Shown: positions 2,172-61,805, counted from the first letter of the stretch. The stretch is 64,000 bases of DNA from Candidatus Buchananbacteria bacterium (GCA_041665005.1 JBAYJR010000004.1:20669-84668); one strand, 5' to 3'. Numbers and translations are program-made. Notes: a model not told the origin generated them from the sequence alone.

Positions 2172-3590
2172 TTATTTTAATTTCTTAATATTTTTTAAAA
2201 ACTGCTGACCGCGATCAAATTCATTTTTAAACAAGCCAAAAGAGGCACAGGCTGGTGATAATAAAATTACCCCTCCCCGCTTAGCCTTTAGCCAAGCCAG
2301 CTTAACCGCCTCGGACATGCTGCTCACTTCAGCTAAACTGGAATAATTTTTTAAGTCAGCTTTAATTTTTTCCGTGCCCGCACCGGGCAATAATACTAAA
2401 TATTTAACCCGGCGCTTAATTTCTTTAGTTAATCCAGAAAATTCTAGTTTTTTATCAGCCCCCCCAGCAATTAAAATTATTTGCTGGGCAGTTTTGGTTA
2501 AGGCCTGCAAAGCAGCTAAGGTGGCATCTGGCGTCGTCGCCGTAGTGTCATTATAAAAATTTATACCGCGTAAACCTTTTACTAATTCCAACCGATTAGC
2601 TAGGCCCACAAATTTTAAACTTTGCTTGCGAACAATTTTTAAGGGCACTCCAAAAGCCAAAGCGGCCGTAGTGGCAATTAAAACATTTTTAACGTTGTGC
2701 TCACCTAAAACTTTTAATTGCTTAACGCGACAAATTTTTTGCTCTTGACCGAACCGTCTAAAATATAAAACTTGATTTTTAATAAACCCACCATTTTGTT
2801 CGGCAAAATATTTTTGACTAACCCAAAACCTTTGGGCTAAACAACGAATACCCATCGCTTTGGTAAATTTATTATCCAAATCAAACACTGCAATATCTGA
2901 TGGTTGTTGATAGCGCCAAAGATGTTCCTTGGCCGCGGCATATTCTTTAAGATTTTTATAAGTGTTTAAATGATCCGGCAAAATATTAGTAACGATTGCT
3001 AATTGCGGAGATTTTTTAAGATCAGCCAAGCTTTCTGCCATCCAAGAAGAAATTTCTAAAACTACCGGCGTGGTTGGTTTTAAATTTTTTAAGTGCAATA
3101 ATGGCGATTGCCCTAAATTACCCCCCAGTAAACTTTGCGGCTCCCAGGCTTTGATAATTTGGTAAAGTAAAGTAGCGGTAGTGCTTTTACCACGGGTGCC
3201 GGTCACGCCTAAAATTGGCCCGGCATAAAGTTTAATAAATAAACTAATATCGGTATAAATCGGAATTTTATTGGCCCGCGCCAACTTTAAAAAATTTGAA
3301 CTAGCTGGCACTCCCGGGTTGCGAATAATTATTTTAGCCGCGGCAAAATCTTTGGCCCGATGCTTGCCTAAAACAAAAGTTAATTTAGCCAAAGGATGTT
3401 GCTTAGCAAATTTTTGTAATTCCTTAACTGGTTTAGCAAGTTGTTTACTGGTTTTTAAATCGGTTATCAAAACTTTAGCTTGTTGCTCAATAAAAAATTT
3501 GGCCGCGGAAATACCGCTACCTTGTTCGTATAGGCCTAAGCCCATAATTACTACTTTTTGGCCAAAAAAATTGTTGGATTTTTCTACCAT
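2172..3590 (-). CDS. murD: UDP-N-acetylmuramoylalanine--D-glutamate ligase MurD
   Basis: 472 aa with a Mur-ligase P-loop (GVTGTRGKSTTATLL) and an N-terminal Rossmann segment (VVIMGLGLYEQGSG). Its position upstream of ftsW supports the murD call. Confidence 0.85.
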   Translation of the reverse strand: MVEKSNNFFGQKVVIMGLGLYEQGSGISAAKFFIEQQAKVLITDLKTSKQLAKPVKELQKFAKQHPLAKLTFVLGKHRAKDFAAAKIIIRNPGVPASSNFLKLARANKIPIYTDISLFIKLYAGPILGVTGTRGKSTTATLLYQIIKAWEPQSLLGGNLGQSPLLHLKNLKPTTPVVLEISSWMAESLADLKKSPQLAIVTNILPDHLNTYKNLKEYAAAKEHLWRYQQPSDIAVFDLDNKFTKAMGIRCLAQRFWVSQKYFAEQNGGFIKNQVLYFRRFGQEQKICRVKQLKVLGEHNVKNVLIATTAALAFGVPLKIVRKQSLKFVGLANRLELVKGLRGINFYNDTTATTPDATLAALQALTKTAQQIILIAGGADKKLEFSGLTKEIKRRVKYLVLLPGAGTEKIKADLKNYSSLAEVSSMSEAVKLAWLKAKRGGVILLSPACASFGLFKNEFDRGQQFLKNIKKLK

Positions 3591-3672
3591 ATAACTTGTC
3601 TAGTATAACAAAAATCCGCGGTTTTTTCAAACCGCGGAATAAAGTAAAAAAAATAAAATCAAAGACCAAAGA

Positions 3673-4737
3673 TCAAAGAATACTCACCAAAAAACGGCCA
3701 GCCTTGCTGGAATTGGGATTGCCCGGAGCGCCCTGAATCAAGTCGACCTGCGCAAAGTTACGATAGAAATAGACATACGGCACGCAGCCAAGTTTTTTTA
3801 AACAACTGCTAAGCAGATAACAAGCCTTGCTCGAACCTTGATAACCATCAATCACTTGGTTGGTTTGGGTTAAGTGGCTTAAGGCATAAATTAACCATGA
3901 TTCTGGGGTTAGACCTTGTTCACCTTTATACTGAGGGTCGGTTTGGAGTTGTTTAAGATAGTTATTGGGTGATTGGTTAGCTTCTGGTTGCTGGCGATGA
4001 GCGATGATTTTACCTTGGCCTTCGGGTGGAAGGTCGGGTAGGTCTTCAAGTAACAGGACTTGCCAGGCTTGGGTGGGTAAAAGTTCTTGTTTGGTTTTAC
4101 CTTGGTGATCAGTTTTGGAATATTCTTGGGGGAAATATGCTAAATCTCCTGTGGCTTCAGCTTCTACCAATCCAGCATCATCAAAAATAAACTTTGTGCC
4201 AATCTCTTTATTAAGCCCTAAGGGTTGATTTTGGGTATCTCGGAGCTCACCTCGCTGATGATGTTCTATTAGAGCCCTGTCATAAGCCTCTATTAGAGAA
4301 CCTATTGGTAAACCAAAAGGAACAAGGATTAGTTTAACAAAGCCTTGTTTAATTTTAGTTTCAAAAAACTTACGTTTTTCTAGCATTATTTCTTCAATCT
4401 GTTCTAGGGTGGGTATGGGGTATTCTTGCTTATCAATTGCTTCAATACCTAATTTGCCAGTGGAGAGGGTTTTTAGGAGGTTGTTTTTACGGAGAATGTC
4501 TACTTGGGCTTCATACTGGGCTTTAAGGTTTTCTGGGGTTAGTTCGGGGGTGTTGAGCCAGAGTTGGTCTTGGAGTTCTTGGAGGGTTTGTTCTAATTTA
4601 GTTTTAGCTTCTCTGATAAAGATAAGATCGTCTGACTTTCCTGTTTGCGGTAAACCGGCTAATTCTTGATTGAATGTTTGTTTTAGTTGTTTAAGAGACT
4701 CTAGTTCAAGGGTAAGTCTTTGACAGGATTGAGGCAT
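3673..4737 (-). CDS. Hypothetical protein, paralog family member 1: conserved N-terminal coiled-coil module plus C-terminal domain 'A'
   Basis: 354-aa ORF with a canonical ATG. N-terminus MPQSCQRLTLELESLKQLKQTFNQEL...; C-terminal ~290 aa are ~70-75% identical to ORFs 6049..7107 and 51558..52631 (shared LGIEAIDKQEYPIPTLEQI, ELLPTQAWQVLLLEDLPDLP, YLKQLQTDPQYKGEQGLTPESW). No signal peptide and no recognisable catalytic motif. Confidence 0.6.
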   Translation of the reverse strand: MPQSCQRLTLELESLKQLKQTFNQELAGLPQTGKSDDLIFIREAKTKLEQTLQELQDQLWLNTPELTPENLKAQYEAQVDILRKNNLLKTLSTGKLGIEAIDKQEYPIPTLEQIEEIMLEKRKFFETKIKQGFVKLILVPFGLPIGSLIEAYDRALIEHHQRGELRDTQNQPLGLNKEIGTKFIFDDAGLVEAEATGDLAYFPQEYSKTDHQGKTKQELLPTQAWQVLLLEDLPDLPPEGQGKIIAHRQQPEANQSPNNYLKQLQTDPQYKGEQGLTPESWLIYALSHLTQTNQVIDGYQGSSKACYLLSSCLKKLGCVPYVYFYRNFAQVDLIQGAPGNPNSSKAGRFLVSIL

Positions 4738-4762
4738 AAAATATTTTTAAAAAATATTATAC

Positions 4763-6037
4763 TTAAATCTGTTTATTTATTTCTAAATACTTAACAAAAG
4801 TTTTAAAATCAACCGGAAGATCTTGGGCTAATCTATCTAAAGGACTTTTGTCTGCAAAAAGACCCTTTCTGCTTGCTATTTTTTCAAATATTTCATTTCT
4901 AAAGCCCCAAGCCTGAGGAGAATCTAAACCAGCTAAACTTCTAACCAAGCCAAAAAATATATCAGTATTTATGGTTGAATTTTCAGTAGTGGCTAAGATT
5001 AGATTTCTTAAATTCCACGCCTCTGGGGAGTCTAATCCCGCCAAACTTTTGGCAAGCTCTTTATTATAATTTGTATTTAATAAATTCCTTCGCCACTCCC
5101 AAGCTTGCTCAGAATCCAAGCCGGTTAAACTTTCAATAGTATTAATTATATTTGCTCCTCCTACTGTTAAACCCAACTTTTTTCTAAACTCCCAAGCTCT
5201 GGCAGAGTCTAAACCGGCCAAACTGGACATAAGTTTGTTACTACGACTAATCTTATTTTGTTTTGTCGTAGCTTTTAAAATATCTCCCCTAAACTCCCAG
5301 GCGGCCGGAGAATCCAAACCTTTTACACTCTCAATTATACGATCCAAATCTACTTGCTGGTCAAATAATTCTGCTCTAAATTCCCAGGCGGCCGGAGAAT
5401 CCAAACCGACCAAGCTAAGGACTAACTCGGGTATATTTTCCTTTTGCTTTAACAATTTTTTTCGCCACTCCCAAGCCTGAGGAGAATCTAAACCATCTAA
5501 ACTACGAGCAATATAACCATTAGTTAATTCGTCCGACAACTTTTCTCGCCACTCCCAAGCTCTGGCAGAATCCAAGCCAGTCAAGCTAGTTGCTATAAAG
5601 CCTTTTCTTCCTACCTGGGCTAAAAGATTTTCTCGCCATTCCCAAGCTTTAGGAGAATCCAAACCAGTTAAACTGATTTCCAAACAACCTTCGGCTACTT
5701 TTTGTGCTAATAACCTTTCTCTTAATTTCCAAGCCGAATCGGAATCAAAATATTTTAATCCCAAGGCAATAAAATTTTGATCAAAATTTTCGGCTAAAAG
5801 TTGCTCGTAATATTCAAGACAATGTTGTTCAAATTCGGCATAAATAAATTCCGGCATTGACCGCTCAATTTTTTTTAAAGCAAATTTAAAATCTTCTTTA
5901 ATTTTCCTAAGCAAAGCTAAGTCCTCGGACTTTTTGGAGTCTAGATCTTTAATTTTAGTTAATTCCAAATCAAACTGTTGTTTAAGCGTTTTAAGGGATT
6001 CTAGTTTGGTAGTAAGTTCTGGGCAAAGTTGGGGCAT
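4763..6037 (-). CDS. Hypothetical protein, paralog family member 2: same N-terminal module fused to ten tandem ~30-aa helical repeats (motif sLxGLDSPxAWEWRxxLL)
   Basis: 424-aa ORF. The first ~35 codons are near-identical at the DNA level to the 5' end of ORF 6049..7107. The remainder is ten tandem repeats (GLDSPKAWEWRENLL, GLDSARAWEWREKL, GLDSPQAWEWRKKLL, GLDSPAAWEFRAEL, ...) resembling TPR/HEAT-like alpha-solenoid units. Confidence 0.6.
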   Translation of the reverse strand: MPQLCPELTTKLESLKTLKQQFDLELTKIKDLDSKKSEDLALLRKIKEDFKFALKKIERSMPEFIYAEFEQHCLEYYEQLLAENFDQNFIALGLKYFDSDSAWKLRERLLAQKVAEGCLEISLTGLDSPKAWEWRENLLAQVGRKGFIATSLTGLDSARAWEWREKLSDELTNGYIARSLDGLDSPQAWEWRKKLLKQKENIPELVLSLVGLDSPAAWEFRAELFDQQVDLDRIIESVKGLDSPAAWEFRGDILKATTKQNKISRSNKLMSSLAGLDSARAWEFRKKLGLTVGGANIINTIESLTGLDSEQAWEWRRNLLNTNYNKELAKSLAGLDSPEAWNLRNLILATTENSTINTDIFFGLVRSLAGLDSPQAWGFRNEIFEKIASRKGLFADKSPLDRLAQDLPVDFKTFVKYLEINKQI

Positions 6038-6048
6038 AAATATTTTAT

Positions 6049-7107
6049 TTAAGAAATACTTACTGCAAACCGGCCGGTACCGTCAGAACCGGAATCGTCC
6101 GGATCATACTGAACCAAGTAGACCCGAGCACGGCCACGGCCGAAGCCGGCGAACGGCACGCTGCCAAATTCTTTAAAACAACTACTAAGTAAATAACAAG
6201 CCTTACCCGAACCCTGATAATTATCAATCACTTGGCTAGTTTGTTCTAAATGACTTAGGGCATAAACTAGCCAGGATTCCGGGGTTAAACCTTGTTCACC
6301 TTTATATTGAGGGTCAGTTTGGAGTTGTTTAAGATAGCTATTGGGTGATTGGTTAGCTTCTGGTTGCTGACGTTTAGCTATGATTTTACCTTGACCTTCA
6401 GCTGGAAGGTCGGGTGAGTCTTCAAGTAGTAGGACTTGCCAGGCTTGGGTGGGTAGAAGTTCCTGTTTGGTTTTACCTTGATGAGTAGTTTTGGAGTATT
6501 CTTGGGGAAAATATACCAAGTCTCCTTTTTCATCAGCCTTTGCGTATTCAACCAAGTCATTAATAGGTTCTCCCTTAAGCTCTAAGGGTTTATTTTGGGT
6601 GTCCAAAAGTTTGCCTTGCTGGTGGTGTTCGGTTAGGGCATCGCCATAGGCCTCTTTCAGAGAGCTAATTGGTAAGCCAAAGGGAACAAGAACTAGCTTG
6701 ACAAAACCTTGATTGATTTTGGTTTTAAAGAATTCTGGTTTTTCTAGAATTGTTTCTTTAATCTGTTCTAGGGTGGGTATGGGATATTCCTGCTTATCAA
6801 TTGCTTCAATGCCTAGTTCACCAGTGGTGAGGGTTTTTAGGAGGTTGTTTTTACGGAGGAGGTCTACTTGGGCTTCGTACTGAGTTTTAAGGCTTTCTTG
6901 AGCTAGTTCAAGAGTTTCTATCCATATTTTGTTTTGAAAGTCTTGGAGGGTTTGGTTTAGTTTGGATTTTATATTTCTGATGAAAATAAGATCGTCTGAC
7001 TTTTTGGAATCGAGATTTTTAATTTTAGTAAATTCCAAATCAAACTGTTGTTTAAGCGTTTTAAGGGATTCTAGTTTGGTAGTAAGTTCGGGGCATTGAG
7101 AATTCAT
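6049..7107 (-). CDS. Hypothetical protein, paralog family member 3 (N-module plus domain 'A')
   Basis: The track ORF 6049..7128 opens with a TTG. The conserved family start MNSQCPELTTKLESLKTLKQQFDLEF... corresponds to the ATG at 7105-7107. The C-terminal domain is homologous to 3673..4737 and 51558..52631. Confidence 0.6.
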   Translation of the reverse strand: MNSQCPELTTKLESLKTLKQQFDLEFTKIKNLDSKKSDDLIFIRNIKSKLNQTLQDFQNKIWIETLELAQESLKTQYEAQVDLLRKNNLLKTLTTGELGIEAIDKQEYPIPTLEQIKETILEKPEFFKTKINQGFVKLVLVPFGLPISSLKEAYGDALTEHHQQGKLLDTQNKPLELKGEPINDLVEYAKADEKGDLVYFPQEYSKTTHQGKTKQELLPTQAWQVLLLEDSPDLPAEGQGKIIAKRQQPEANQSPNSYLKQLQTDPQYKGEQGLTPESWLVYALSHLEQTSQVIDNYQGSGKACYLLSSCFKEFGSVPFAGFGRGRARVYLVQYDPDDSGSDGTGRFAVSIS

Positions 7108-7151
7108 AAAGATAGCAATTAACAACAAAAACTATTAAATCAGTTAACCAA

Positions 7152-8195
7152 CTATATTTTATCCAACAAAAATATAATCAAGCCAATCGCCGCCATTACT
7201 CCGGAGATTACCCAAAACCGCATCACAATTTTTGTTTCCGGCCAACCAATCGCCTCCAAGTGATGGTGGATTGGTGCGGATAAAAAAACTTTTCGCTTAA
7301 ATACCTTTTTAGAAAAGACTTGGATGATTACTGATAAAGATTCAATTACAAACAATAAACCAATAATTGGCAACAACAAAACTTGATTAGTTAACATCGC
7401 CACAATTCCTAAAACCACCCCCAAAGACATTGCCCCAGTATCTCCCAAAAAGAATCTAGCGGGATTAATATTAAACCACAAGAAGGCTAATAGCGCTCCC
7501 GAAATCACCCCGCACAAAGTTGCTAAATCATATTTACCTTGAGCAAAAGCAATAATACCATAAGAAGCAAAAGCGGCCATTAAGGTGCCACCGGCCAAAC
7601 CATCCAAACCATCAATTTCATTGACCGAAAAAGCGGTGGCCACAATTACAAAAATAAACATTGGAAGATACCACCAGCCAATTTCATAATTACCCATAAA
7701 TGGCACATGAATAAAATTCCAACCCAATTTATAATAAAACCAATAAGCTCCTACGGTCGCAATTAAAGTGTAAGTTAACAAACGGGCCTTAACGCTTAAA
7801 CCGCCACCCTTAGGGCCCCAGCGCCAAACATTTAATAAATCATCAACTAATCCAACTACCGCCGCGGCCACCAAAGCACCCAAAGGCAACCAGGTTTGAC
7901 TACGACTTAAAAAATTTAAATCCGACCAAAAACCGTCAAAATATTGACTGAGGTAATAAACTGCCAAGGCTAAAACTAAAGTAGTCACCCACACCAACAA
8001 GCCACCCATCGTCGGCGTGCCGGATTTTTTTTGATGAATGGCCGACATAATCGGCGCGGCTTCGGAAGCGCGAATTTGCTTGCCTAGTTTATATTTATAC
8101 AAAAAGTGAGTCAACAGCGGCGTCCACATTACTGCCAACACAAAAGACAAAGTAGTTAAGAAAAAAGTTTTAGCAATTAACAAATTTAAACTCAT
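7152..8195 (-). CDS. mraY: Phospho-N-acetylmuramoyl-pentapeptide transferase MraY
   Basis: 347-aa polytopic membrane protein carrying the MraY/WecA signature (VNEIDGLDGLAGG) and the conserved C-terminal HHHLE motif (SAPIHHHLE). Confidence 0.9.
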   Translation of the reverse strand: MSLNLLIAKTFFLTTLSFVLAVMWTPLLTHFLYKYKLGKQIRASEAAPIMSAIHQKKSGTPTMGGLLVWVTTLVLALAVYYLSQYFDGFWSDLNFLSRSQTWLPLGALVAAAVVGLVDDLLNVWRWGPKGGGLSVKARLLTYTLIATVGAYWFYYKLGWNFIHVPFMGNYEIGWWYLPMFIFVIVATAFSVNEIDGLDGLAGGTLMAAFASYGIIAFAQGKYDLATLCGVISGALLAFLWFNINPARFFLGDTGAMSLGVVLGIVAMLTNQVLLLPIIGLLFVIESLSVIIQVFSKKVFKRKVFLSAPIHHHLEAIGWPETKIVMRFWVISGVMAAIGLIIFLLDKI

Positions 8196-8566
8196 ATATT
8201 GATTGAATAAATTAAACTAACCGCAATTAAAAAAATTATTTGAACAATCGTAGTTATTTGAATTAAAACTAAACTTAATAACTTTTCTTTAGTGTATAAA
8301 AATAAGGCTAAGCCAAAATTTAAAACTACCAAAAAACCCGCTAAGGCCGGATAAACCAGCAACCAGGTCCAAGGGCCTAAAAAATCTACGCCAAAATAGA
8401 TATTGTAATGCAAGACTAAAGAATGAGAAACTGGTTGAGCCAATAACAACACCAAAAACCACAGCACCGGATAAAGCACTAAACACAACCAAAAATTTAC
8501 CAGCACAAACAAGTCACGTCTGGCCGGATGATTAGCTAAATATTCTTTAGCGCGAGTGTAAAACAT
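8192..8566 (-). CDS. Hypothetical small membrane protein (about 4 TM helices)
   Basis: 124-aa hydrophobic ORF whose stop overlaps the mraY start by 4 nt. No recognisable family. Confidence 0.35.
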   Translation of the reverse strand: MFYTRAKEYLANHPARRDLFVLVNFWLCLVLYPVLWFLVLLLAQPVSHSLVLHYNIYFGVDFLGPWTWLLVYPALAGFLVVLNFGLALFLYTKEKLLSLVLIQITTIVQIIFLIAVSLIYSINI

Positions 8567-8640
8567 AAAAATATTTTACCAAAAAACCCAGGCTTTGTCC
8601 AATTAATTCAAACACTGACCTAGGTTAATAATCCCCTAAA

Positions 8641-8668
8641 TAAAGCAGGGACAAAATTATTTGTCCCT
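8641..8668 (-). terminator. Candidate intrinsic terminator downstream of ORF 8681..9100
   Basis: Perfect 10-bp inverted repeat CAGGGACAAA-tta-TTTGTCCCTG at 8641-8665. On the minus strand it is followed by a short U-rich stretch (CUUUAUUU). Confidence 0.4.
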
Positions 8669-8680
8669 GAAAAAAACTTG

Positions 8681-9100
8681 TTAAAAATTAAATTTTCTAA
8701 TCCGCTCAAGCAGTAATTCTAACTGCTTAATTAAATAATCATAATCTGGCTGACTTAAAGCTTCAGGCTTAACAATAACTCGAGCTAAGCCCGCGCTCAC
8801 TTTATTGGTCTCAAACTCCCAACAGTTCCTAACTACCTGACTGACAAACAAGGCCAACATACCCTCATCATCCTTATTTACCTCGTTGGTAGTTTCTTGG
8901 TTATGCTCATCGGCAAAAACCAAAAGATTACGCGTTTTAACAAACCAATGATTTTTTTCCTGCGCGACAGTTTTGTTGCCAAATTCATGACGAGCTAAAT
9001 CATGTAACCGAACAATGGTGTTATTCAGGATGTGCTCTAAGTCAGATTTATGTTGCAAAACTGGCAGTTGAACAATCCCAGCGGAGTTCTCGCCACTCAT
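8681..9100 (-). CDS. Hypothetical protein
   Basis: 139-aa ORF with no recognisable motifs, divergent from the pilus operon. Confidence 0.4.
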   Translation of the reverse strand: MSGENSAGIVQLPVLQHKSDLEHILNNTIVRLHDLARHEFGNKTVAQEKNHWFVKTRNLLVFADEHNQETTNEVNKDDEGMLALFVSQVVRNCWEFETNKVSAGLARVIVKPEALSQPDYDYLIKQLELLLERIRKFNF

Positions 9101-9237: not shown

Positions 9238-10971
9238 ATGCTTAACCAACATCATTTATCCAAAATAATTGTCCAAGCCAAAATCGTGACTGAGGACAAA
9301 TTAAAAGAGCTGGAAACTGAAGCCCAAAAAAGGCAACAAAGCCTGGAAGATTATATAATTTCCCAAAAAATGATTAGCGAGGAAGCCCTTTACGAAACCG
9401 CAGCCAAGTATTACCAAGTTCCTTTCATTAATTTAAAAAATCAAGTAATCCGTAAAGATATTCTTTTTTTAGTGCCGGATATAGTCGCACAAAATCAACA
9501 AATCGTTGCCTTTGAGGCGGATAATAAAAACATCAGCCTGGCCACTTTAGATCCAGTTAACCTAGAAATTTTTGAGTTTATCAAGAAAAAAGCCAATTTG
9601 GAACCGAAAATATACCTAACCACCCCGGAAAGTATCAAAGAAGTAATCAAGCAGTATCACAAAGGTTTACAGGCAGAATTTAAAGATTTAGCTAAAGAAG
9701 AGGAAGTAGCTACCCTTAGTGAAAAAGGGGCTAAAGATTTAAAACAACTCGCCGAAGATTTACCGGTAGTACGCATTGTTGATACTTTATTAGAATACGC
9801 TATTTTAGAAGGTGCTTCGGATATCCACATTGAACCCGCCGAAAAAGAAATTAATGTCCGCTACCGAGTTGACGGTATTTTACGCAACGTTATGACTTTG
9901 CCTAAAACCGTCCAGTCGGGAGTAATCGCTAGAATTAAAATTTTGTCTAACCTAAAAATTGATGAACATCGCCTGCCTCAAGACGGCCGTTTTAAAGTCC
10001 AAACCAATGAATATAAAATTTCCTTCCGGGTTTCCATTATTCCCACCTTTGAAGGCGAAAAAGTGGTCTTGCGTTTACTAAATGAGCAAGCCAGAATTTT
10101 AACCTTAGAACAACTGGGCTTGCAAACAAAATCTTTAGAGGTAGTTAAAAGAAATATTACTAAGCCCCATGGCATTATTTTAGTCACCGGACCCACCGGC
10201 TCCGGCAAAACCACTACCTTATATACCGTTTTAAATTTACTAAACACTCCTCAGGTTAATATCTCTACTGTAGAAGACCCTATTGAATACCGTATGAACG
10301 GCGTTAACCAAAGCCAGGTTAACCCCCGCATTGGCTACACCTTTGCTTTAGGCTTACGCGCCTTGATGCGTCAAGACCCTAATATCATTATGGTTGGAGA
10401 AATTCGTGATACCGAAACCGCTGATATCGCCATTAACGCCGCCATGACCGGACATTTAGTCCTAAGTACTTTTCACACCAACGACGCCGCCACCGCCCTG
10501 CCCCGCTTACTAGACATGGGCATACCTTCTTTTTTAATCGCCTCCACTATTAATATTATTGTAGCGCAACGTTTGGTACGCAAAGTTTGTCAAAATTGTT
10601 TAGAAAGTTATAACTTAGATAAAAAATCCGCCACCGAAATTACTCAAGAATTCGATATCCCCTCCTTAATAAAAATGTTAGAAAAAGAAAAACTGGCTAG
10701 TAGTAAACAAACCTTAGAAACCATGCTTTTTTATCGTGGCAAGGGCTGTAAACAATGTAACAACGAAGGTTTTAAGGGGCGCCTGGGTATTTACGAAGTC
10801 CTAGAAATTACTCCCGAAATTTCTGATTTAATTTTAAAACGAGGCAGTTCAGACGAAATTAGAAATAAAGCCATTGAGCAGGGCATGCTTACTTTATTAC
10901 ATGATGGTTTTATTAAAGCCAAAACTGGCTTAACCACCATTGAAGAAGTTTTACGTGTTAGTAAAGAATAA
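9238..10971 (+). CDS. pilB: Type IV pilus assembly / type II secretion ATPase (PilB/GspE family)
   Basis: 577 aa with Walker A (GPTGSGKTT), Asp/His boxes and the C-terminal tetracysteine motif (CQNC...CKQCNNEGFKGRLG). N-terminal GspE-N-like domain. Confidence 0.9.
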   Translation: MLNQHHLSKIIVQAKIVTEDKLKELETEAQKRQQSLEDYIISQKMISEEALYETAAKYYQVPFINLKNQVIRKDILFLVPDIVAQNQQIVAFEADNKNISLATLDPVNLEIFEFIKKKANLEPKIYLTTPESIKEVIKQYHKGLQAEFKDLAKEEEVATLSEKGAKDLKQLAEDLPVVRIVDTLLEYAILEGASDIHIEPAEKEINVRYRVDGILRNVMTLPKTVQSGVIARIKILSNLKIDEHRLPQDGRFKVQTNEYKISFRVSIIPTFEGEKVVLRLLNEQARILTLEQLGLQTKSLEVVKRNITKPHGIILVTGPTGSGKTTTLYTVLNLLNTPQVNISTVEDPIEYRMNGVNQSQVNPRIGYTFALGLRALMRQDPNIIMVGEIRDTETADIAINAAMTGHLVLSTFHTNDAATALPRLLDMGIPSFLIASTINIIVAQRLVRKVCQNCLESYNLDKKSATEITQEFDIPSLIKMLEKEKLASSKQTLETMLFYRGKGCKQCNNEGFKGRLGIYEVLEITPEISDLILKRGSSDEIRNKAIEQGMLTLLHDGFIKAKTGLTTIEEVLRVSKE

Positions 10972-10986
10972 ACTAATTTACCTTTT

Positions 10987-12054
10987 ATGAACTTAGAAAA
11001 AGCTTGGCAAAATTGGCAAAAAATTCCAGCGATGCAAAAAATTTTTATGGTCCAAAATTTGGCCGTCATGATTAAGGTCGGCATTTCTTTGTCAGAAGCT
11101 CTAAAAACTTTAGCCCTGCAAAGTACTTCTAAAAAATTAGCTAATATTTTGGTTGATCTACAACAAAAAGTAGAAAAAGGCAACGAACTAGGCAAATCTT
11201 TAGAAATCTATCAAAAAGATTTTGGCGAACTTTTTGTTAATATGGTTAAAGCTGGCGAAGCTTCCGGTAAACTGGAAGATGTTTTAAACCAACTTTATAT
11301 TCAAATGAAAAAAGATCATGAAATTTCTAGCAAAATAAAAGGAGCGATGATCTATCCCATTATTGTTGTCACCACCATGTTGGTAGTTGGTGTTTTAATG
11401 ATGATTTATGTTATTCCTAGCTTAACTGTAGTCTTTAAAGAGGTGGATGTAGAACTGCCTTTGGCTACTCGCATTTTAATTAACACCTCTGATTTTATGG
11501 CCGCCAATACTTTGTGGCTAGGCTTAGCCGGTTTGGTTTTAGTAGTTGCAATCATTAAATTCTTTAGTACCGAAACTGGTAAATTTTGGCTATCAAAATT
11601 TACCGTCTATGCGCCAATTATTTCCCCCGTGGCCAAAAAAATAAACTTAGCAAGATTTTCTCGTACTTTAAGCTCTTTATTAAAAACCGACATAGCCATT
11701 ATTCAAACTTTGCAAATTACTAGCCAAGTTATCACTAATCGTTTATACCGCCAAGCTTTATTAGAGGCAGCCGAAAAAGTAAAAAAAGGGGTCCGATTAG
11801 CAGAAATTTTTAATGACTACCCCCGACTATTCCCCCCCTTGATTATTCAAATGATTACGGTGGGCGAAGAAACCGGGGCAATTGATGATATTTTAGATAA
11901 AATTGCTAATTATTACGAAGAAGATGTTACTCAAACCATGAACACCCTACCTTCAATTATTGAGCCAGTTTTAATGGTAGTTTTGGGCGTCGCAGTCGCC
12001 GGCATGGCCGTAGCGGTAATTATGCCAATGTATACTCTAACCGAAACAATGTAA
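10987..12054 (+). CDS. pilC: Type IV pilus / T2SS inner-membrane platform protein (PilC/GspF family)
   Basis: 355 aa with a duplicated GspF domain and 3 TM segments. Immediately downstream of pilB. Confidence 0.85.
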   Translation: MNLEKAWQNWQKIPAMQKIFMVQNLAVMIKVGISLSEALKTLALQSTSKKLANILVDLQQKVEKGNELGKSLEIYQKDFGELFVNMVKAGEASGKLEDVLNQLYIQMKKDHEISSKIKGAMIYPIIVVTTMLVVGVLMMIYVIPSLTVVFKEVDVELPLATRILINTSDFMAANTLWLGLAGLVLVVAIIKFFSTETGKFWLSKFTVYAPIISPVAKKINLARFSRTLSSLLKTDIAIIQTLQITSQVITNRLYRQALLEAAEKVKKGVRLAEIFNDYPRLFPPLIIQMITVGEETGAIDDILDKIANYYEEDVTQTMNTLPSIIEPVLMVVLGVAVAGMAVAVIMPMYTLTETM

Positions 12055-12512
12055 TGCTAAATCAAAGCTTTCGTCACGGTTTTTCGCTAATTGAAATGGT
12101 GGTTTTAATTTCCATTATCGGCGTAGTGACCATGATAACTATGCCCCTAATTCAAAACTACCAACCAACCTTAAGGCTAAACACTGCTTCCCGAAATTTA
12201 GCCACTGATTTGCGTTACGCCCAGCAACGCACAGTTACCGAGCAAACCAACTACCAAATTGCTTTTGATTTACCTAATCGCACTTATCAGGTTATCAAGA
12301 AAGCCACTGGCCAAATAATAAAAACCGTTACTATTAGCAACGACTTAAATTGGTCCATTAATCAACCGGGCTTTACTAATGATCGCGTGGAATTTGTAAT
12401 AACCGGAGCCGCCTTACAAGCCGGCCAATTAGTAATTACTAATCGTCAAAATCGTTTTTTAACTATTGAAATAAAACCTTCTGGTTATGTTAAAATTTCC
12501 CAAACCAACTAG
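12054..12512 (+). CDS. Prepilin-type N-terminal cleavage/methylation domain protein (pseudopilin)
   Basis: Class III signal ...RHG|FSLIEMVVLISIIGVV. The start overlaps the pilC stop (TAATG). Confidence 0.7.
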   Translation: MLNQSFRHGFSLIEMVVLISIIGVVTMITMPLIQNYQPTLRLNTASRNLATDLRYAQQRTVTEQTNYQIAFDLPNRTYQVIKKATGQIIKTVTISNDLNWSINQPGFTNDRVEFVITGAALQAGQLVITNRQNRFLTIEIKPSGYVKISQTN

Positions 12513-12921
12513 ACCCGGCTTTACTTTAATCGAAGTGGCAATTTCTATTTTTTTAGTTTCTGCCATTGCCACTACTATTTTAAGTATGTTCCCGTTTATT
12601 CTAAGAATTGGCAAAAATTCCGAAATGAATTCTTTAGCCACTGCTCTAGCTCAGGGAAAAATTGAAGAGCTATCAACCGGTGACTACGACAGCTTAACAA
12701 CCGGCACTTTGGAAAATCATGTTCGTGTATCCACCAATCCTGAAAGTTTTTTTTACAACTACTGGCGCACTACTACCATTAATTACCTTGACACCAACTT
12801 AATAACTTCGGCTAGCGACCAAGGTTTAAAAAAAGTGGCCGTTACTATTTATTGGAAAATTGCAATTTCTTTACCGATCGAAAAAAGTCTAACTATTCAA
12901 TCAATAATTGCCAAAAAATGA
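12487..12921 (+). CDS. Type IV pilin-like protein
   Basis: Canonical prepilin motif KPTRPG|FTLIEVAISIFLV. Confidence 0.7.
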   Translation: MLKFPKPTRPGFTLIEVAISIFLVSAIATTILSMFPFILRIGKNSEMNSLATALAQGKIEELSTGDYDSLTTGTLENHVRVSTNPESFFYNYWRTTTINYLDTNLITSASDQGLKKVAVTIYWKIAISLPIEKSLTIQSIIAKK

Positions 12922-13487
12922 AGCTAGCTTACAAAAACCTAGGATTTACTTTAGCCGAAACCATCGTCGCGATTGGTCTTTTAGCCTTATTAGTTTTACT
13001 GGTACTTTCTGTTTTTATGTTAGCCCAGAAAGCTTATTGGCAAAATGATAACCGCGCGGAATTAATCCAAAATGGTCGCGTAATTTTAGATCGCTTAGAA
13101 AGAGAACTAAGACAAGCCAGCGATATTGTAACCGAAATCCCTCCAGACGATAGCAACTCGCTCTTAATACCCCATGAAATTATCTTCCAAGATGGTCATG
13201 ACTCTACCACTATTCATTATTTGCGTTATTACCTAAATGGCCAAAATTTAAAAAGACAAATAATTGCTTATTACTTCAGCGAAAGTCCTAACACCTATGT
13301 CAAACATGACTCCGTGGATATCTATAGCAACCCGCCCCAGAAACTAATCCTAGAAGACAACATTGTGGGTGAATACCTAGACAATATTAGTTTCTATGGT
13401 AATGACATTATTTATATTTTTTTACAACTGAGCAACAAAAATAAACAAATTAATTTACTAACTGGATTTTATGCGAGAAATTTATAA
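12918..13487 (+). CDS. Type IV pilin-like protein
   Basis: The internal ATG at 12918 gives MKLAYKNLG|FTLAETIVAIGLLALLVLLV, a prepilin signal. The track ORF starts earlier (12852), overlapping the previous gene. Confidence 0.6.
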   Translation: MKLAYKNLGFTLAETIVAIGLLALLVLLVLSVFMLAQKAYWQNDNRAELIQNGRVILDRLERELRQASDIVTEIPPDDSNSLLIPHEIIFQDGHDSTTIHYLRYYLNGQNLKRQIIAYYFSESPNTYVKHDSVDIYSNPPQKLILEDNIVGEYLDNISFYGNDIIYIFLQLSNKNKQINLLTGFYARNL

Positions 13488-14715
13488 AAAAATAGACTCC
13501 AAGGGTTTTGCTTTAATTGCTTCCATGGTAGTAATGACGGCCTTAATTCTGTTAGGAGTTTACGCTTTAAATTTTACTATCGGCGAACATGGTATTTCAC
13601 AAAGCCAAAGCCAGGCCACTAAAACTTACTACTTTGCCGAGGCCGGAATTAATGAAATGATTCATAAAGTCAAAAGTGATTACAATACTACTCAAGCTTT
13701 TTTAAACGGCTCACTTAATTCTAGCTTTACCATCAACCGAAGTGATGTCTTGGCTGATCCCAAAGCTTCTTACTTAGTAACTATTATTAGCACTGGCCCC
13801 GCTACCGCACAAATTATCGCTACTTCCACCTACCAAATCGGCAACACTGTCGCCCGCCGCGTTATTAAAGCAGATATTAATAAGGCTACTAACAGCACCG
13901 AAACCTGGCCCAGTGGTTTGGTAGCTGGTGGACTCGATGGTTATATTAAATTTACCGGCAACAACGGCAACTATACTGAAACCGGCGGAAAAATTCATGC
14001 TAACGGCTTTATCCAAGTTACCGGCAACAACACTACCGTTAAAATTAACAACGGCTCACTTTCTGCCAAACAATCAATCACCGTTGCTGGCAATAATAGC
14101 AGTATTGCAACTCCCCCGCCCTCCTACCAATCAACTCCCACCTCTACTACTATAAACCTACCACAAATTGATTTTAACTCGGCCGCTACTACCTCCTGGT
14201 ACAACCGGGCCAACACTAAAATGACTTGTACCGAATTTCGTAATTTATTTGGCAATAACCAAACCATCAATTTAACCGGCGTTACTTATGTTTCCAACTG
14301 CACCGGCTTAACTATTAGCGGCAATAACAATACTTTGAACATTAAGGGTATTTTAGTAATCTATGGCGGTATTACTTTTGGTGGTAATAATTTAATTTTT
14401 AAAATTTCTCCTGAAACCGATCATCCGGAAAACGGCGCCGGAATTTTAGTTAGTGGTAACCTGACGATTAACGGCAATAATTTGAGCGCTAATGTTAACG
14501 GCTTAATATACACCGCTGGTAATTTAAACATTGGCGGCAATAATCCAATTTTAGCTTTCAAAGGTGGGATTGTTTGTAACTCAGCCGACTTTGGTCATAA
14601 CAATTCTACTTTAAATTTAATTTACGATGAATCAGTAATCTTACCGCCTTTAGCGCCCGCCCTAAATACTGATTCACCAATCATCAGAATTAACCATTGG
14701 GAAGAACAATATTAA
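13471..14715 (+). CDS. Large pilin-like protein (PilX-N-like N-terminus plus Gly-Asn-Asn repeat beta-solenoid-like region); possible pilus tip or minor pilin adhesin
   Basis: N-terminus KG|FALIASMVVMTALILLG is a degenerate prepilin signal lacking Glu5. The body contains about 8 repeats of x(T/S)GNN (TGNNGNYTETGG, VTGNNTTVKINNG, SGNNNTLNIKG, NGNNLSANVNG, GGNNPILAFKG). Confidence 0.5.
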   Translation: MREIYKKIDSKGFALIASMVVMTALILLGVYALNFTIGEHGISQSQSQATKTYYFAEAGINEMIHKVKSDYNTTQAFLNGSLNSSFTINRSDVLADPKASYLVTIISTGPATAQIIATSTYQIGNTVARRVIKADINKATNSTETWPSGLVAGGLDGYIKFTGNNGNYTETGGKIHANGFIQVTGNNTTVKINNGSLSAKQSITVAGNNSSIATPPPSYQSTPTSTTINLPQIDFNSAATTSWYNRANTKMTCTEFRNLFGNNQTINLTGVTYVSNCTGLTISGNNNTLNIKGILVIYGGITFGGNNLIFKISPETDHPENGAGILVSGNLTINGNNLSANVNGLIYTAGNLNIGGNNPILAFKGGIVCNSADFGHNNSTLNLIYDESVILPPLAPALNTDSPIIRINHWEEQY

Positions 14716-14717
14716 CT

Positions 14718-15788
14718 ATGTCTTTTTTAAACCCTTCGCCTCAAGCTTTTGGTTTAGACATTAACGATTTTTCCTTAAAATTAGTTAAGTTGGTTAAGCT
14801 TGGCAAAAAAATTGAACTAAAGTCCTACAACCTAATAACAATTCCCCCGGGAGTAGTTAGTAATGGCGAAATTAAAGATCCACTAGTTTTTATTACTAGC
14901 CTACAAAAACTAATCAAAACCCGACACGGTGGTGGTTCCTTAGGCCGCGAAGTAATAACTGTTTTGCCAGAAACTAAAACTTTTCTTAAAAATATCATCA
15001 TTGATAAACCAGACAACAATGAAGACTTGGAACCAAAAATTATTAAAGAAATAGAAAAAAATCTGCCTTACAATTTATTAGAGGTTTATTTAGACTGGCA
15101 AATTTTTAACCAACCCAACGAAAACAAAACGAATATTTTAGTGGGCGCCGCCCCCCAAAAAGTAGTTAACGAATATTTAGCCGTCTTACAACAAGCCGGA
15201 CTAGCTCCTTTAGCCTTAGAAATTGAAGCCGTAGCTCTTGGTCGATCTTTAATAAACCCTAAACAAGATTTAACTGACACCGCCTCAATTATTATTGATC
15301 TGGGAGCCACCCGTAGTGGTTTAGTAATTTATAATCAAGGCATCCCCCAAACTACCATCAGTCTACCCATTGCTGGCAATCAAATTACCCAAAAAATTAT
15401 CGATACCCTACAACTCAATTGGGAACAAGCCGAAAAGGCTAAAATAATTTGCGGTTTAAACAAAGCTAAATGCAGCGGCGCTTTAAATGAAATTTTGGAT
15501 CAAACTTTTACTGATTTAGCCGAAAAAATAAACCAAGCCGTAGAATTTTATTATGACCACTTTACTAACCCTAATAAAATTAAAGAAATTTTAATTTGTG
15601 GTGGTGGTGCTAATTTTTCTGAAATTGATGAGGTATTAACCCAAAAAACCGGTATTACCACTAAAATTGGTAACCCTTGGATTAATTTAGCCAATAACCA
15701 AAAAACTCCCCTACCCAACGACCAGGCTCTAATTTTTACCTCGGCGATTGGCTTAGCCTTAAGAGGTTTAGATTCAGAAAATATATGA
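14718..15788 (+). CDS. pilM: Type IV pilus assembly protein PilM (actin-like ATPase fold)
   Basis: Start MSFLNPSPQAFGLDINDFSLKLVKL... matches the PilM N-terminus. The protein has two sugar-kinase/actin-like lobes. The track start 14697 is a TTG upstream. Confidence 0.8.
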   Translation: MSFLNPSPQAFGLDINDFSLKLVKLVKLGKKIELKSYNLITIPPGVVSNGEIKDPLVFITSLQKLIKTRHGGGSLGREVITVLPETKTFLKNIIIDKPDNNEDLEPKIIKEIEKNLPYNLLEVYLDWQIFNQPNENKTNILVGAAPQKVVNEYLAVLQQAGLAPLALEIEAVALGRSLINPKQDLTDTASIIIDLGATRSGLVIYNQGIPQTTISLPIAGNQITQKIIDTLQLNWEQAEKAKIICGLNKAKCSGALNEILDQTFTDLAEKINQAVEFYYDHFTNPNKIKEILICGGGANFSEIDEVLTQKTGITTKIGNPWINLANNQKTPLPNDQALIFTSAIGLALRGLDSENI

Positions 15789-16318
15789 TGATTACTTTAA
15801 ATATTATTTCTCCTCAACAAAAAGAAGATTTAAAACTAAAAAAGCTTTACCATGAAGCCCGAAATTTAATTACTATTATTTTATTGTTTACTATTATCGC
15901 CGCGATTATGGTTTTAGTCGCCCGTTACATTTTACAAAAAGAATTTTATGAGCTAGTCAAGCAAAACACCCTAGTTTCGCAGAGTAACCAAAAAATTAAC
16001 CGTCAAATCAGAACTCTAAACCAACAAGTAACAACTGTGGATAAAATACAAACTCAATACAAAGACTATCATGCTTTTTTGGGAAATTTTTTTCAACTCG
16101 TACCATCAGGAATACAGCTTTACTACTTTAAAATTAACTCCGAACAAATAACAGAGCTTAAGGGCCGAGCCACTACTCGTGACGCCTTGCTGACTTTTAA
16201 GCAAGCTTTGGAGAAAAATCCCGGCCTCAGCAACATCAACTTACCCGTCAGTAACCTTTTAGATCAAACTAATCTTAATTTTTCTTTAACTTGCAAAATA
16301 ACTACTTGGCTAAAATAA
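15785..16318 (+). CDS. PilN-like bitopic membrane protein
   Basis: 177 aa with a single N-terminal TM then a coiled region. The start overlaps the pilM stop (ATGA). Position and topology match PilN. Confidence 0.5.
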   Translation: MMITLNIISPQQKEDLKLKKLYHEARNLITIILLFTIIAAIMVLVARYILQKEFYELVKQNTLVSQSNQKINRQIRTLNQQVTTVDKIQTQYKDYHAFLGNFFQLVPSGIQLYYFKINSEQITELKGRATTRDALLTFKQALEKNPGLSNINLPVSNLLDQTNLNFSLTCKITTWLK

Positions 16319-16319
16319 T

Positions 16320-16883
16320 ATGACTTGGATGAAAAAAAAGGTTTTTTTAACTCTCGGCGGCTTAATTATCTTTTTGCTGATAATTTTTGAATTTTTTATT
16401 GTCCAGGCCGTTACTGATATAAAACAGATTAATCAAGAAGTTTATCGTCAGCGCCAAGAATTGGAAGAAAAATTTTTAGCCGGCCAAAACTTACGCAAGA
16501 CCACTGAGGATTTAAAAAAATTAGAGGAAAAAATACCCGAACTAAATTTTATTTTTGTTGAAGAAAATAAAGAATTAGAGTTTATTACCGCCTTAGAAAA
16601 AATTGCCAAAAATAATTCTTTAACCCAAAAAATAGAACTGGATAATAACGCCGAAATTATCTCGGCCAACATCAAAGCCTTGCCTTTACGTCTCTATTTA
16701 TCTGGTAGCTTTAATAAATTTACAAACTATCTAACCGACTTGCAAAAATTAAATTACTATATTAACTTTGACACCCTAACTGTCAACAACGCCCAAGGCA
16801 CCAACAAAAGCCAAGAACTATCCGGAGAAACCTTAGAGTTTTTTATTGGGGGAAAAATCTTTTGGCGCAAACTTAATATTTAA
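16320..16883 (+). CDS. PilO-like bitopic membrane protein
   Basis: 187 aa with an N-terminal TM and coiled-coil (EELEEKFLAGQNLRKTTEDLKKLEEK), immediately after the pilN-like gene. Confidence 0.45.
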   Translation: MTWMKKKVFLTLGGLIIFLLIIFEFFIVQAVTDIKQINQEVYRQRQELEEKFLAGQNLRKTTEDLKKLEEKIPELNFIFVEENKELEFITALEKIAKNNSLTQKIELDNNAEIISANIKALPLRLYLSGSFNKFTNYLTDLQKLNYYINFDTLTVNNAQGTNKSQELSGETLEFFIGGKIFWRKLNI

Positions 16884-51557: not shown

Positions 51558-52631
51558 TTAAAAAATACTCACCGCAAAACGAACAGATTTTCTAGGACTA
51601 GAATACGTCGGCTCGTTCTCATCCAACTCGACCCGCGCATGACTACGGTAAAAATAGGCATACGGCACGCCGACGGGTTTTACAAAACAACTATTAAGCA
51701 GGTTGCAAGATTTACCTAAACCCTGACTATTATCAATCACTTGGTTAGTTTGTTCTAAGTGGCTTAAGCCATAAACCAACCAGGATTCTGGAGTTAAACC
51801 TTGTTCACCTTTATACTGAGGGTCAGTTTGGAGTTGTTTAAGGTACTCATCCGGCGTTTGATCGGATTCTGGTTGCTGACGATTAGCTATGGTTTTACCT
51901 TTACCTTTAAATGGAAGGTTTGGCAAGTCTTCAAGTAACAGGACCTGCCAGGCTTGGGTGGGTAAAAGTTCCTGTTTGGTTTTACCTTGATGATCATCAG
52001 AAAATTCTTTGGGGAAATATACTAATTCACCAGTGGCTTCGGCTTGGATATAATATTTAGTATCCTCATTATCAATAAACCTACCACCGACATATCCATC
52101 AAGCTCTAGGAGCTTACCTTGAGTGTCCAATAGCTTGCCTTGTTGATAATTTTCCATTAAAGCATTGCTATAAGCATCTATTAGGGAACTAATTGGCAAA
52201 CCAAAGGGAACAATAATTAGTTTAACAAAGCCTTGTGGTATTTTGGTTTCCAAGAGTTCTCGTTTTTCTAACATCCTTTCTTCAATCTGTTCTAGGGTGG
52301 GTATGGGGTATTCCTGCTTATCAATTGCTTCAATGCCTAATTCGCCAGTGGAAATTTTCTTTAGTAAGCCAGCCTTGATGAGAATTTCTTTCTGAAATTC
52401 ATATTGGGCTTTAAGGTTTTCTCGGGTTAACTCAGGAGTTTCTAGCCATATTTTGTTTTGGAGGTCTTGGAGGGTTTGGTTTAGGTTGGCTTTGATGTTT
52501 CTGATGAATATAAGATCATTAGACTTTTTGGAGTCTGAGTTTTTGACTTTAGACAATTCCAAATCAAACTCTACCTTGAGTTGTTTGAGGGAGGCTAGTT
52601 TGGTAGTGAGTTCGGGGCAAAGTTGGGGCGT
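51558..52631 (-). pseudogene. Paralog family member 4 (N-module plus domain 'A') whose ancestral ATG is ACG; possible pseudogene or non-AUG-initiated gene
   Basis: The reading frame continues upstream of the track start (TTG at 52560-52562) and encodes TPQLCPELTTKLASLKQLKVEFDLE, colinear with the MPQLCPELTTKL... starts of the paralogs. The homologous start codon at 52629-52631 is ACG. An in-frame TAA lies 2 codons upstream and the only in-frame near-cognate codons are ATT or TTG. Confidence 0.5.
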
Positions 52632-61200: not shown

Positions 61201-61638
61201 TTAATTTTTTGGACGAGAACCTATTAAGTGAAATTTGAAACTGTCTATGTTATCACTATTGACCAACCCAATGTCTTTTCTAACTTCAATAACCAACTTG
61301 GTTAAAAGCTCATCGTGTCTACCAGGATTTTTTTGGTTATTAGAAAATTTAACATAATCATGAAATCCCAAAAGAGCTTTTATAACATCTTGAGAGGCAA
61401 TTAACGCTATGGAATTAAAGGCTTTTGAAAAACGTTGATTAGCATCTTCTTTGTCTGTGCCATCAATAGCTAAATCAGAAAGTGCGATAAATAGGTTTTC
61501 ATAATAAGATATCTTCCTCTTCCTCCATTCAGTTTTTATCTCATAACGTTTTGTTAAAAAGAAACCAAAAGCAGCAACTACTAAAGAGCCGAAAGTGCTG
61601 ATGATAACTACTACGATTTCTGTGCTTATTGTAGGCAT
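61201..61638 (-). CDS. Hypothetical membrane-anchored protein immediately 3' of tRNA-Ser
   Basis: ATG at 61636-61638 (the track ORF 61201..61764 runs through the tRNA gene). 145 aa with an N-terminal TM helix (IVVVIISTFGSLVVAAFGFFL). No family recognised. Confidence 0.4.
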   Translation of the reverse strand: MPTISTEIVVVIISTFGSLVVAAFGFFLTKRYEIKTEWRKRKISYYENLFIALSDLAIDGTDKEDANQRFSKAFNSIALIASQDVIKALLGFHDYVKFSNNQKNPGRHDELLTKLVIEVRKDIGLVNSDNIDSFKFHLIGSRPKN

Positions 61639-61664
61639 ATAGGTTGTACGATACTTAATTCTCT

Positions 61665-61753: not shown

Positions 61754-61805
61754 AAACAAAACAATTTTAGCCAAAATATTACTCTTTGTCCAGTCTTTAG
61801 TTTGA

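Follow-up and report, generated by a model that had tools for sequence, protein, structure and literature searches.

Large adaptor families, in which a short helical docking module is joined to WD40, LRR or other recognition domains, are known from eukaryotes, the F-box proteins being the example. We know of nothing of this kind, nor of the Death-domain kind, in the lineage of the candidate phyla radiation (CPR). In the NTP-dependent conflict systems of bacteria, homotypic coupling of effectors and sensors has been proposed for the effector-associated domains (EADs) and the bacterial Death-like domains (Kaur, Burroughs, Iyer and Aravind, eLife 2020; PMC7159879). In the present study a stretch of 64,000 nucleotides from Candidatus Buchananbacteria (GCA_041665005.1, JBAYJR010000004.1:20669-84668; "the window" in the following) was analysed, in which a block of three genes, A1, R and A2, lies between mraY and murD inside the division and cell wall (dcw) cluster. 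All three products begin with the same helical hairpin, N, which is followed by a domain of the type called A in A1 and A2, and by an array of repeats in R. We describe the block as one locus of a lineage-specific, heavily expanded and modular N-hairpin family, and our confidence in this genomic part is high. That N works as an adaptor is proposed tentatively and, taken alone, with clearly less than an even chance of being right, while the genomic and the mechanistic statements combined are put at about even.

The N-hairpin family and its domains

The A1 and A2 proteins are 69% identical over their full length (E 1e-147), and R has only the first ~60 residues in common with them, at 36-65% identity. 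Matches of the N module within the trio had E values between 1e-7 and 1e-17, and on this comparison the three are taken as true paralogs, chance similarity being excluded. The succession N-A, N-repeat, N-A between murD and mraY, which was noted in the first-pass annotation of the window, holds. With tblastn six family members were found in the window, namely A1, R, A2, A3, W and X (Table 1).

According to the structure model of A1, N would be an antiparallel helical hairpin of ~60 residues, with the helices at residues 2-27 and 35-59. When an N profile of 61 positions was searched against 1.84 billion cluster representatives, 149 matches were obtained, nearly all of them at residues 1-60 of the protein. 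A Cys was present within the first 10 residues in 136 of the 149, most often at position 5, and a membrane-like hydrophobic stretch in only 3; neither a signal peptide nor a membrane segment was found in the family members. The proteins were then grouped by their C-termini, which were usable in 128 members (representatives together with the six window proteins). The partner of N was the A domain in 69 cases, WD40 in 12, WG repeats in 9, R-type repeats in 8, LRR in 5 and DUF5701 in 1, many of the others being unannotated singletons. Judged from these alignments, N is a genuine N-terminal module with interchangeable partners, of which the annotated ones are mostly protein-binding scaffolds. DUF5701 was considered as a relative of A and was rejected, since the DUF5701 protein has only the N part in common with A and X. 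In a sole match of the profile, P0207 (564 aa), N was located well inside the chain (329-378); this protein clusters with the A domain and may have arisen from two neighbouring genes of the family, joined into one by a frameshift or by an error of gene calling.

The database homologs of A1 numbered 74, and ~21 of them bear the WCW02_ tags of one Candidatus Buchananbacteria metagenome-assembled genome (MAG). These ~21 N-A paralogs are 44-71% identical to A1 and are distributed over at least seven contigs; the best matches outside the source MAG are at most 49% identical. The tags run beyond 05020 in steps of five, which corresponds to ~1000 genes, and the N-A genes would thus make up ~2% of the genes of the MAG. 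Tandem copies are frequent, and those whose surroundings were seen lie shortly after housekeeping genes; further family loci were found behind ileS (L081), in front of dsbA, and flanked by a hemerythrin-like gene on one side and dut on the other. N-A genes also tend to be found beside or near genes that encode N with a scaffold, as in A2-R-A1 and W-A3 in the window, and in the distant genome L082 two other N-proteins are encoded within a few genes of an N-A gene.

The loop of the hairpin was compared across N of A1, R, A2, A3, W, X and 18 paralogs of the same genome. It occurs in two forms, a short S(S/G)LPQTGK(T/S) and a form two residues longer, TK(I/V)KNLDSKKS, and tandem pairs mixing the two are A1 with R/A2, W with A3, 01130/01135 and 05015/05020. 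The mixed forms, seen in a few pairs only, could mark heterotypic pairing. At the start of A3 (52629-52631, minus strand) ACG-CCC-CAA-CTT-TGC is found in place of the ATG-CCC-CAA-CTT-TGC of the paralogs. The next in-frame start is the TTG at 52562, and the database version, of 334 aa, is present in ENA only (P0016). The ACG could mean that the copy is decaying, that translation starts at a non-canonical codon, or that the base was misread in sequencing.

The A domain is an alpha/beta domain of ~290 residues (63-354 of A1), and the AlphaFold2 (AF2) model of A1 had a predicted local distance difference test score (pLDDT) of 92.9 and a predicted template modelling score (pTM) of 0.87. No Pfam, NCBIfam or PADLOC family matched A1, R or A2; Pfam scans of each of 50 members of the A-family alignment gave nothing recurrent, and no family for A or N. 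A sequence-profile search of PDB and structure searches of PDB and BFVD returned no match for A1, and on its model the A domain is possibly a new fold. Weak, coiled-coil-like matches to DUF2357, a type I restriction-modification specificity subunit, LmuB and V-SNARE were judged to be noise. The invariant residues of the A family are Y106, K128, G132, P140 and E273. The domain carries HQGKTK and then WQVLLLED, which superficially look like Walker motifs (GKT, hhhhED). It was nevertheless rejected as a P-loop NTPase: the first Gly of the Walker A motif GxxxxGK[ST] is absent, no NTPase match with E < 1 was found by Foldseek against PDB, and there was no Pfam match.

The ratio of nonsynonymous to synonymous substitutions (dN/dS) among the family paralogs was 0.26-0.37 overall, therefore the genes are maintained. 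The values were 0.11-0.30 in two conserved cores (63-160 and 201-290) and 0.47-1.27, in six comparisons, in the C-terminal beta-subdomain (291-354). It is mainly in residues 291-354, and less in 161-200, that the paralogs differ. The pattern of variability in 291-354 is what would be expected for a specificity surface.

In the R protein, N is followed by ten repeats of ~29 residues with the form sLxGLDSPxAWEWRxxLL. The AF2 model of R is all-alpha, a solenoid of helix pairs with a pLDDT of 85-95 in the repeat core; as modelled, R thus would have the tandem two-helix repeats in a solenoid by which HEAT/ARM-like proteins are defined. The comparison of R with PDB gave only generic HEAT/ARM/PC-repeat-like matches, which were weak (the aminopeptidase N C-domain, Rpn2 and alphaRep; probability 0.9-0.99, E 0.03-0.3), and the repeats matched none of the Pfam repeat families. 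Because the repeats are too diverged, no tandem array was found in R at the DNA level by Tandem Repeats Finder.

The best match of the R repeats was an unannotated protein (E 1e-44). Homologous arrays form the C-terminal part of ~560-residue myxobacterial P-loop (thymidylate-kinase-like) proteins and occur in AAA_5 fusions. In case of the myxobacterial "dTMP kinase" proteins (PF02223 followed by the repeat array) the homology of the repeats had E values of 1e-25 and weaker, and the kinase domain stands where R has the N hairpin. R-type arrays make up the C-terminal half of the Myxococcales "dTMP kinase" proteins P0091, P0096, P0112, P0126, P0130 and others, and several such paralogs are present per myxobacterial genome. 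These proteins are unlikely to be plain thymidylate kinases and resemble P-loop-plus-sensor-array proteins; the fusion of R-type repeats to a P-loop kinase or AAA_5, in multiple paralogs, is typical of sensor arrays.

The mraY-murD junction and the transcription of the block

Loci centred on mraY were compared in relatives, 160 in total, of which 80 came from genomes and 80 from metagenomes, some contigs being present in both sets. The MraY identity of these relatives was 63-75%, 75% being that of the closest. No family member was found by tblastn (E 1e-5) within 8-10 kb of mraY in any of the 160 loci and, since this is so, the trio is regarded as a lineage-specific insertion at the mraY-murD junction; in this respect the block had been read correctly in the first-pass annotation. 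That annotation also counted the gene order murG-ftsW-murD-mraY among the most conserved in bacteria, and for the mraY-murD junction this does not apply here. murD follows mraY within 400 bp in only 63 of the 160 loci, while unrelated genes, of 0.7-3.3 kb in total, stand between them in 18. ftsW comes directly after mraY, with murD not nearby, in 23 loci, and Lon or other genes follow mraY without murD in 11; the remaining loci end too early or show neither murD nor ftsW. The inserts include a glycosyltransferase, a P-loop kinase-like gene, a cupin, a NUDIX hydrolase, another hydrolase, a 911-residue restriction-like protein with its partner, Ldh-like genes and murI. The mraY-murD junction is thus recurrently interrupted across the related Patescibacteria and is weakly conserved in this clade, and the "universal" dcw order is loose in this lineage. 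Many of the relatives' genomes appear to keep murD elsewhere, or lack murD at the mraY locus.

In the window all four genes of the order murG-ftsW-murD-mraY on the minus strand were confirmed by Pfam. From the Pfam assignments and the coordinates, murD-ftsW-murG are contiguous on one strand as in the canonical cluster, whereas mraY and murD, which adjoin each other in the canonical order, are 3.56 kb apart. The gap from mraY to A2 is 23 or 47 bp, depending on the start codon of A2, the gap from A2 to R is 11 bp, that from R to A1 is 25 bp and that from A1 to murD is 82 bp. The spacing of 10-25 bp at first ascribed to the block does not hold for A1-murD.

Table 1. Genes and predicted signals of the window, with positions counted from its first nucleotide
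Feature	Position	Strand	Remarks
murG	1-984	minus	Pfam Glyco_transf_28 N and C domains; 3' end beyond the window edge
ftsW	1003-2169	minus	Pfam FTSW_RODA_SPOVE, 2.3e-89
murD, downstream of the block	2172-3590	minus	Pfam MurD-like_N, Mur_ligase_M, Mur_ligase_C
Sigma-70-like promoter candidate for murD-ftsW-murG	3602-3630	minus	TTGAAA-17-TATACT, TG extension; consensus match only
Intrinsic-terminator-like hairpin (3638..3615) and T-run, closing the block	3605-3638	minus	
A1, N hairpin (1-62) and A domain (63-354), 354 aa	3673-4737	minus	NCBI tag WCW02_02025
R, N hairpin and ten ~29-aa GLDSPxAWEWR alpha-solenoid repeats (predicted), 424 aa	4763-6037	minus	
A2, N hairpin and A domain, 351 aa from ATG 7104	6049-7104	minus	WCW02_02035
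A2, alternative start	TTG at 7128	minus	longer start, in the open reading frame listing
mraY, upstream of the block	7152-8195	minus	Pfam Glycos_transf_4, 1.8e-31; MraY_sig1
Small membrane protein, upstream of mraY	8192-8566	minus	also kept there in relatives
A3, N-A	51558-52628	minus	tblastn
W, N and seven-blade WD40 propeller	52642-53811	minus	directly upstream of A3
X, N and reduced A-like domain, 241 aa	63230-63955	minus	hhalign probability 97% against the A profile

The block was originally said to have no obvious terminator. However, a strong terminator-like hairpin with a T-run sits in the 82-bp gap between A1 and murD. It consists of TCCGCGGTTTGAAAAAACCGCGGA followed by TTTTTGTTAT, with 10 pairs, 6 of them G-C; the stem-loop reads TCCGCGG-TTTGAAAAAA-CCGCGGA, TTTTTGTTAT being the T-run, and lies 34 nt past the stop of A1. 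A G+C-rich stem-loop, a U-run and a position 3' of a stop codon are the marks of an intrinsic terminator, and as far as sequence can tell the hairpin has them all. It is the best terminator-like candidate in the first 9.5 kb of the window and its sequence is unique within the window. The 90-nt gap region folds with -21.5 kcal/mol (z = -4.84 against shuffles). By the same criteria, and with a positive control, a similar hairpin was found within 130 nt upstream of murD in none of 88 relatives; in most of these the murD start is within ~20 bp of mraY. The promoter-like site of murD (3630..3602) overlaps the hairpin.

Upstream of the gene for the small membrane protein a promoter-like site (8601..8573) and a terminator-like hairpin (8669..8646) were detected. 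Because these sites lie just upstream of it, this gene is likely the start of a transcription unit reading into the block. No terminator-like site was found between the genes from the small membrane protein to A1, which are on the same strand with gaps of 11-47 bp, and for this reason co-transcription of the trio with the upstream mraY is plausible. A transcript that begins before the genes for the small membrane protein and MraY would then carry the trio and would end at the block's own terminator, brought or acquired with the block, and murD-ftsW-murG would restart from the promoter overlapping it. With a predicted block terminator and a restart at murD, the insertion would have split the operon and not joined it. 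Of the co-transcription with cell-wall genes that had been supposed, the part concerning mraY thus stays plausible on account of the common strand and the short gaps, but read-through into murD is not supported, given the hairpin at the block end, the like of which was found in 0 of the 88 relatives, and murD's own promoter-like site. Since the junction is a recurrent landing site and the insert appears to have its own terminator, the location of the block says little about cell-wall biology.

These data also bear on the alternative that the trio is tied to wall synthesis or division, for instance by providing scaffolds for, or by regulating, MraY/MurD or the septum. The tight spacing of the trio on the strand of mraY and its probable co-transcription would fit such a role, and so would three distant homologs of A in other genomes: one near ftsA-ftsZ (L165), one right after a YkuD L,D-transpeptidase gene and two genes before mraZ-rsmH-ftsI (L166), and one 2.3 kb from murJ (L084). 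We nevertheless consider this role improbable. About 20 other N-A paralogs of the same genome are at unrelated loci (ileS, dut, dsbA), no family member was present in the dcw neighbourhoods of the 160 relatives, where the junction takes many unrelated genes, and the other contexts of the family (gatA/gatB with toxin-antitoxin genes, tsaD/tsaE, clusters of unknown genes) are likewise unrelated to the wall. The proteins are soluble, without signal or membrane segment, and the predicted terminator separates the block from murD. The Pfam family MciZ (FtsZ inhibitor), precomputed for two R homologs, was rejected as a division link: it is a repeat artefact, a sum over the repeats with no single domain above threshold, and it is also absent from R itself. 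The suggestion of the first-pass annotation that the family is functionally tied to the envelope or septum is consequently not supported, the proximity to division genes being anecdotal and confined to three other genomes.

In two unrelated contigs an A homolog adjoins a TsaD/TsaB-family gene (PF00814; L166 9485-9898, L167 2797-3921), which may be a coincidence. Elsewhere in the window a tRNA-Ser (61665-61753) overlaps the 5' end of a listed open reading frame (ORF) of 187 aa (61201-61764, minus strand). The ORF must in fact start further downstream, probably at the Met of MPTISTEIVVV.

Age and mobility of the family

The block could also be a mobile or selfish element, or a passenger of one, recently inserted in the dcw cluster. 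Its insertion is unique to the source genome among the relatives compared, the family is multi-copy and the copies seen occupy intergenic junctions immediately 3' of housekeeping genes, and in another genome (L083) two A homologs without N stand in a toxin-antitoxin/defence island splitting gatA/gatB. The ends of the block, however, showed neither inverted repeats nor a target-site duplication, by a repeat search and a comparison of the boundaries. The check for target-site duplications or direct repeats that had been suggested for the boundaries returned, as the only string common to both ends, the AT-rich 9-mer ATTTTTGTT, no more than two AT-rich stretches of 70-95 nt would share by chance. 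A transposase or integrase was not found in the block: none of its three ORFs matches a Pfam or NCBIfam family, and there is no further plausible ORF of 80 aa or more. Nor was a tRNA found near the block. The GC content of the family genes and that at third codon positions (GC3) are within the range of the neighbouring genes.

The divergence of the copies points in the same direction. Between paralogs, protein identity reaches 80% in the closest pair and is never higher, the synonymous divergence (dS) among four family copies is 0.5-0.8, and in a neighbour-joining tree of 21 paralogs A1 and A2 fall in different groups and are not sister copies. No family match was obtained in phage and plasmid collections (tblastn) or, with A1 as the query, in IMG/VR. 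Because of the dS values, the lack of any pair above 80% and the lack of phage, plasmid and IMG/VR matches, the expansion of the family is judged to be old and resident, and not a recent mobile wave. In view of these results and of the native composition, the alternative proposed at the outset, that the family is mobile, was not retained, and a recent mobile insertion is given only a slight chance.

The identity profiles between the paralogs are mosaic, and the N region of R is 86% identical to that of A2 over 129 nt. Both observations suggest, at the level of sequence comparison, gene conversion among the copies.

The coding strands of A1 and A2 have more C than G, which is unusual for the genome and shows in the composition profile as a stretch where the GC skew is reversed. 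At third codon positions A1 has a G-C skew of -0.40 and A2 one of -0.43, compared with +0.07 (sd 0.31) in the other genes. Since GC3 is normal, the skew probably comes from Q/P/T/L-rich coding, heavy in CAA/CCx/ACx, and not from a foreign origin.

In L083 (GCA_964638435.1, CAZXAY010000003.1, 868-15065) the gatA/gatB junction, which is normally tight, is split by ~11 kb. The insert contains Fic/RhuM, two AbiEii toxin-antitoxin pairs, an AAA_14/DUF4143 ATPase and the two A homologs lacking the N hairpin, each of which lies just 3' of an AbiEii module.

A proposed adaptor role for N and its counterparts in known systems

The adaptor role is proposed because N is a short terminal helical module with varied partners, its genes are clustered, and the family has expanded in one genome. 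N would be a docking or oligomerisation hairpin, joining family members to one another or to a common partner or hub. The members with repeat scaffolds (R, W) would be the binding or recognition subunits, and those with the A domain the working subunit, in which the fast-evolving C-terminal beta-subdomain would set the specificity. The family as a whole would then be a diversifying recognition system, used in defence and conflict or in interaction with a host cell, and not a system with a function in peptidoglycan synthesis or at the septum. It is rare for the reduced genome of a symbiont to retain a large paralog family other than for defence or host interaction, and this makes the family a candidate for the recognition of partners or invaders. 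In its most specific form, as an undescribed modular recognition system of the CPR in which a Cys-hairpin adaptor assembles scaffolds (alpha-solenoid, WD40, LRR, WG) with an A domain of new fold, the proposal is possible, although somewhat unlikely.

Several observations weigh against the proposal. The pairing of N with N is put forward from analogy, and in a nearest-neighbour table of 24 N domains only the adjacent genes P0004/P0005 pair up. N was not found on an NTPase or another core component among the 20 non-A representatives scanned with Pfam, many C-termini of which are unannotated or truncated, and in L082 an AAA_5 protein neighbours an N-A gene but is without N. A catalytic motif was not identified in the A domain. 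Three A homologs are within ~5 kb of division or cell-wall genes (L165, L166, L084), and the terminator and the promoter are consensus predictions in a bacterium whose own signals are uncharacterised.

The same architecture could be explained by secretion. The N family would then consist of secreted or surface effectors serving an episymbiotic lifestyle, with N as a non-classical export or targeting hairpin, either in the manner of the type VII substrates (WXG/LXG/PE) or as a signal to the type IV pilus machinery, and the variable C-termini would bind molecules of the host cell. The strict position of the helix-loop-helix hairpin at the N-terminus, the eukaryote-like binding repeats at the C-termini and the hypervariable C-terminal subdomain of A are in line with this; outside the cell, disulfides could be formed through the conserved Cys, and interaction with a host would agree with so large an expansion in the reduced genome of a symbiont. 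With WXG100, LXG and PE proteins the family has in common an N-terminal helix-turn-helix hairpin, polymorphic C-termini and multiple copies. On the other hand, N has no Pfam match to WXG100, LXG or PE and no WxG motif in the loop, which reads LPQTGK or KNLDSKK, and the proteins have neither a signal peptide nor a membrane anchor. Patescibacteria are, to our knowledge, not known to have type VII secretion, and among the genes scanned, which cover part of the window, neither a type VII machinery nor a secretion ATPase besides PilB was seen. A DsbA gene adjoins X and the type IV pilus cluster abuts the dcw segment, but this proximity may be coincidence. On balance we regard secretion as unlikely. 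The pilus set itself is complete (9238-16883, plus strand), lies a short way upstream of the mraY segment, is encoded on the strand opposite to it, and comprises pilB, pilC, three or four pseudopilin-like genes, a pilX-like gene, pilM, pilN and pilO; an ORF of 139 aa (8681-9100) lies between it and the mraY segment.

It is the family, more than its location, that deserves attention, since it contains an orphan domain with a confident model and no relative in the libraries searched. If the adaptor role of N is true, a symbiont genome of ~1000 genes would spend ~2% of them on it, a major investment in immunity or host interaction, and the family would be a prokaryotic analogue of the Death-domain/F-box adaptor logic.

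By its place the block resembles the other dcw-embedded genes, as unrelated genes stand between mraY and murD in ~18 of the 160 related loci. It differs from these in being made of three paralogs of one expanded orphan family, with a predicted terminator of its own. In its architectural logic the N family is the same as the F-box proteins, which is an analogy only: the F-box has three helices and the hairpin of N has two, the two modules resemble each other neither in sequence nor by Pfam, and no Skp1-like partner is known for N.

The comparison with the EADs (PMC7159879) is closer, although membership of N in the EAD families is not claimed, because N matches none of the EAD or Death-like families of Pfam (E up to 1), the Pfam scan of 20 non-A representatives showed no fusion to a VMAP, STAND, iSTAND, GAP1 or Ubl core, and the N copies of neighbouring genes are not mutual nearest relatives. 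The setting is also different, as the host here is a CPR bacterium with a reduced genome and not a multicellular bacterium, and the main partner, A, is itself unknown. Nevertheless, both N and the EADs are small, non-enzymatic, all-helical and terminal domains. Both are found as one domain fused to many partners per genome, with up to ~20 paralogs, the partners of N being as different as A, R, WD40, WG, LRR and DUF5701. Both often occur in adjacent genes, and in both the partners include WD40 and other superstructure-forming repeats. By analogy, the EADs may thus be considered the closest described parallel of the N family.

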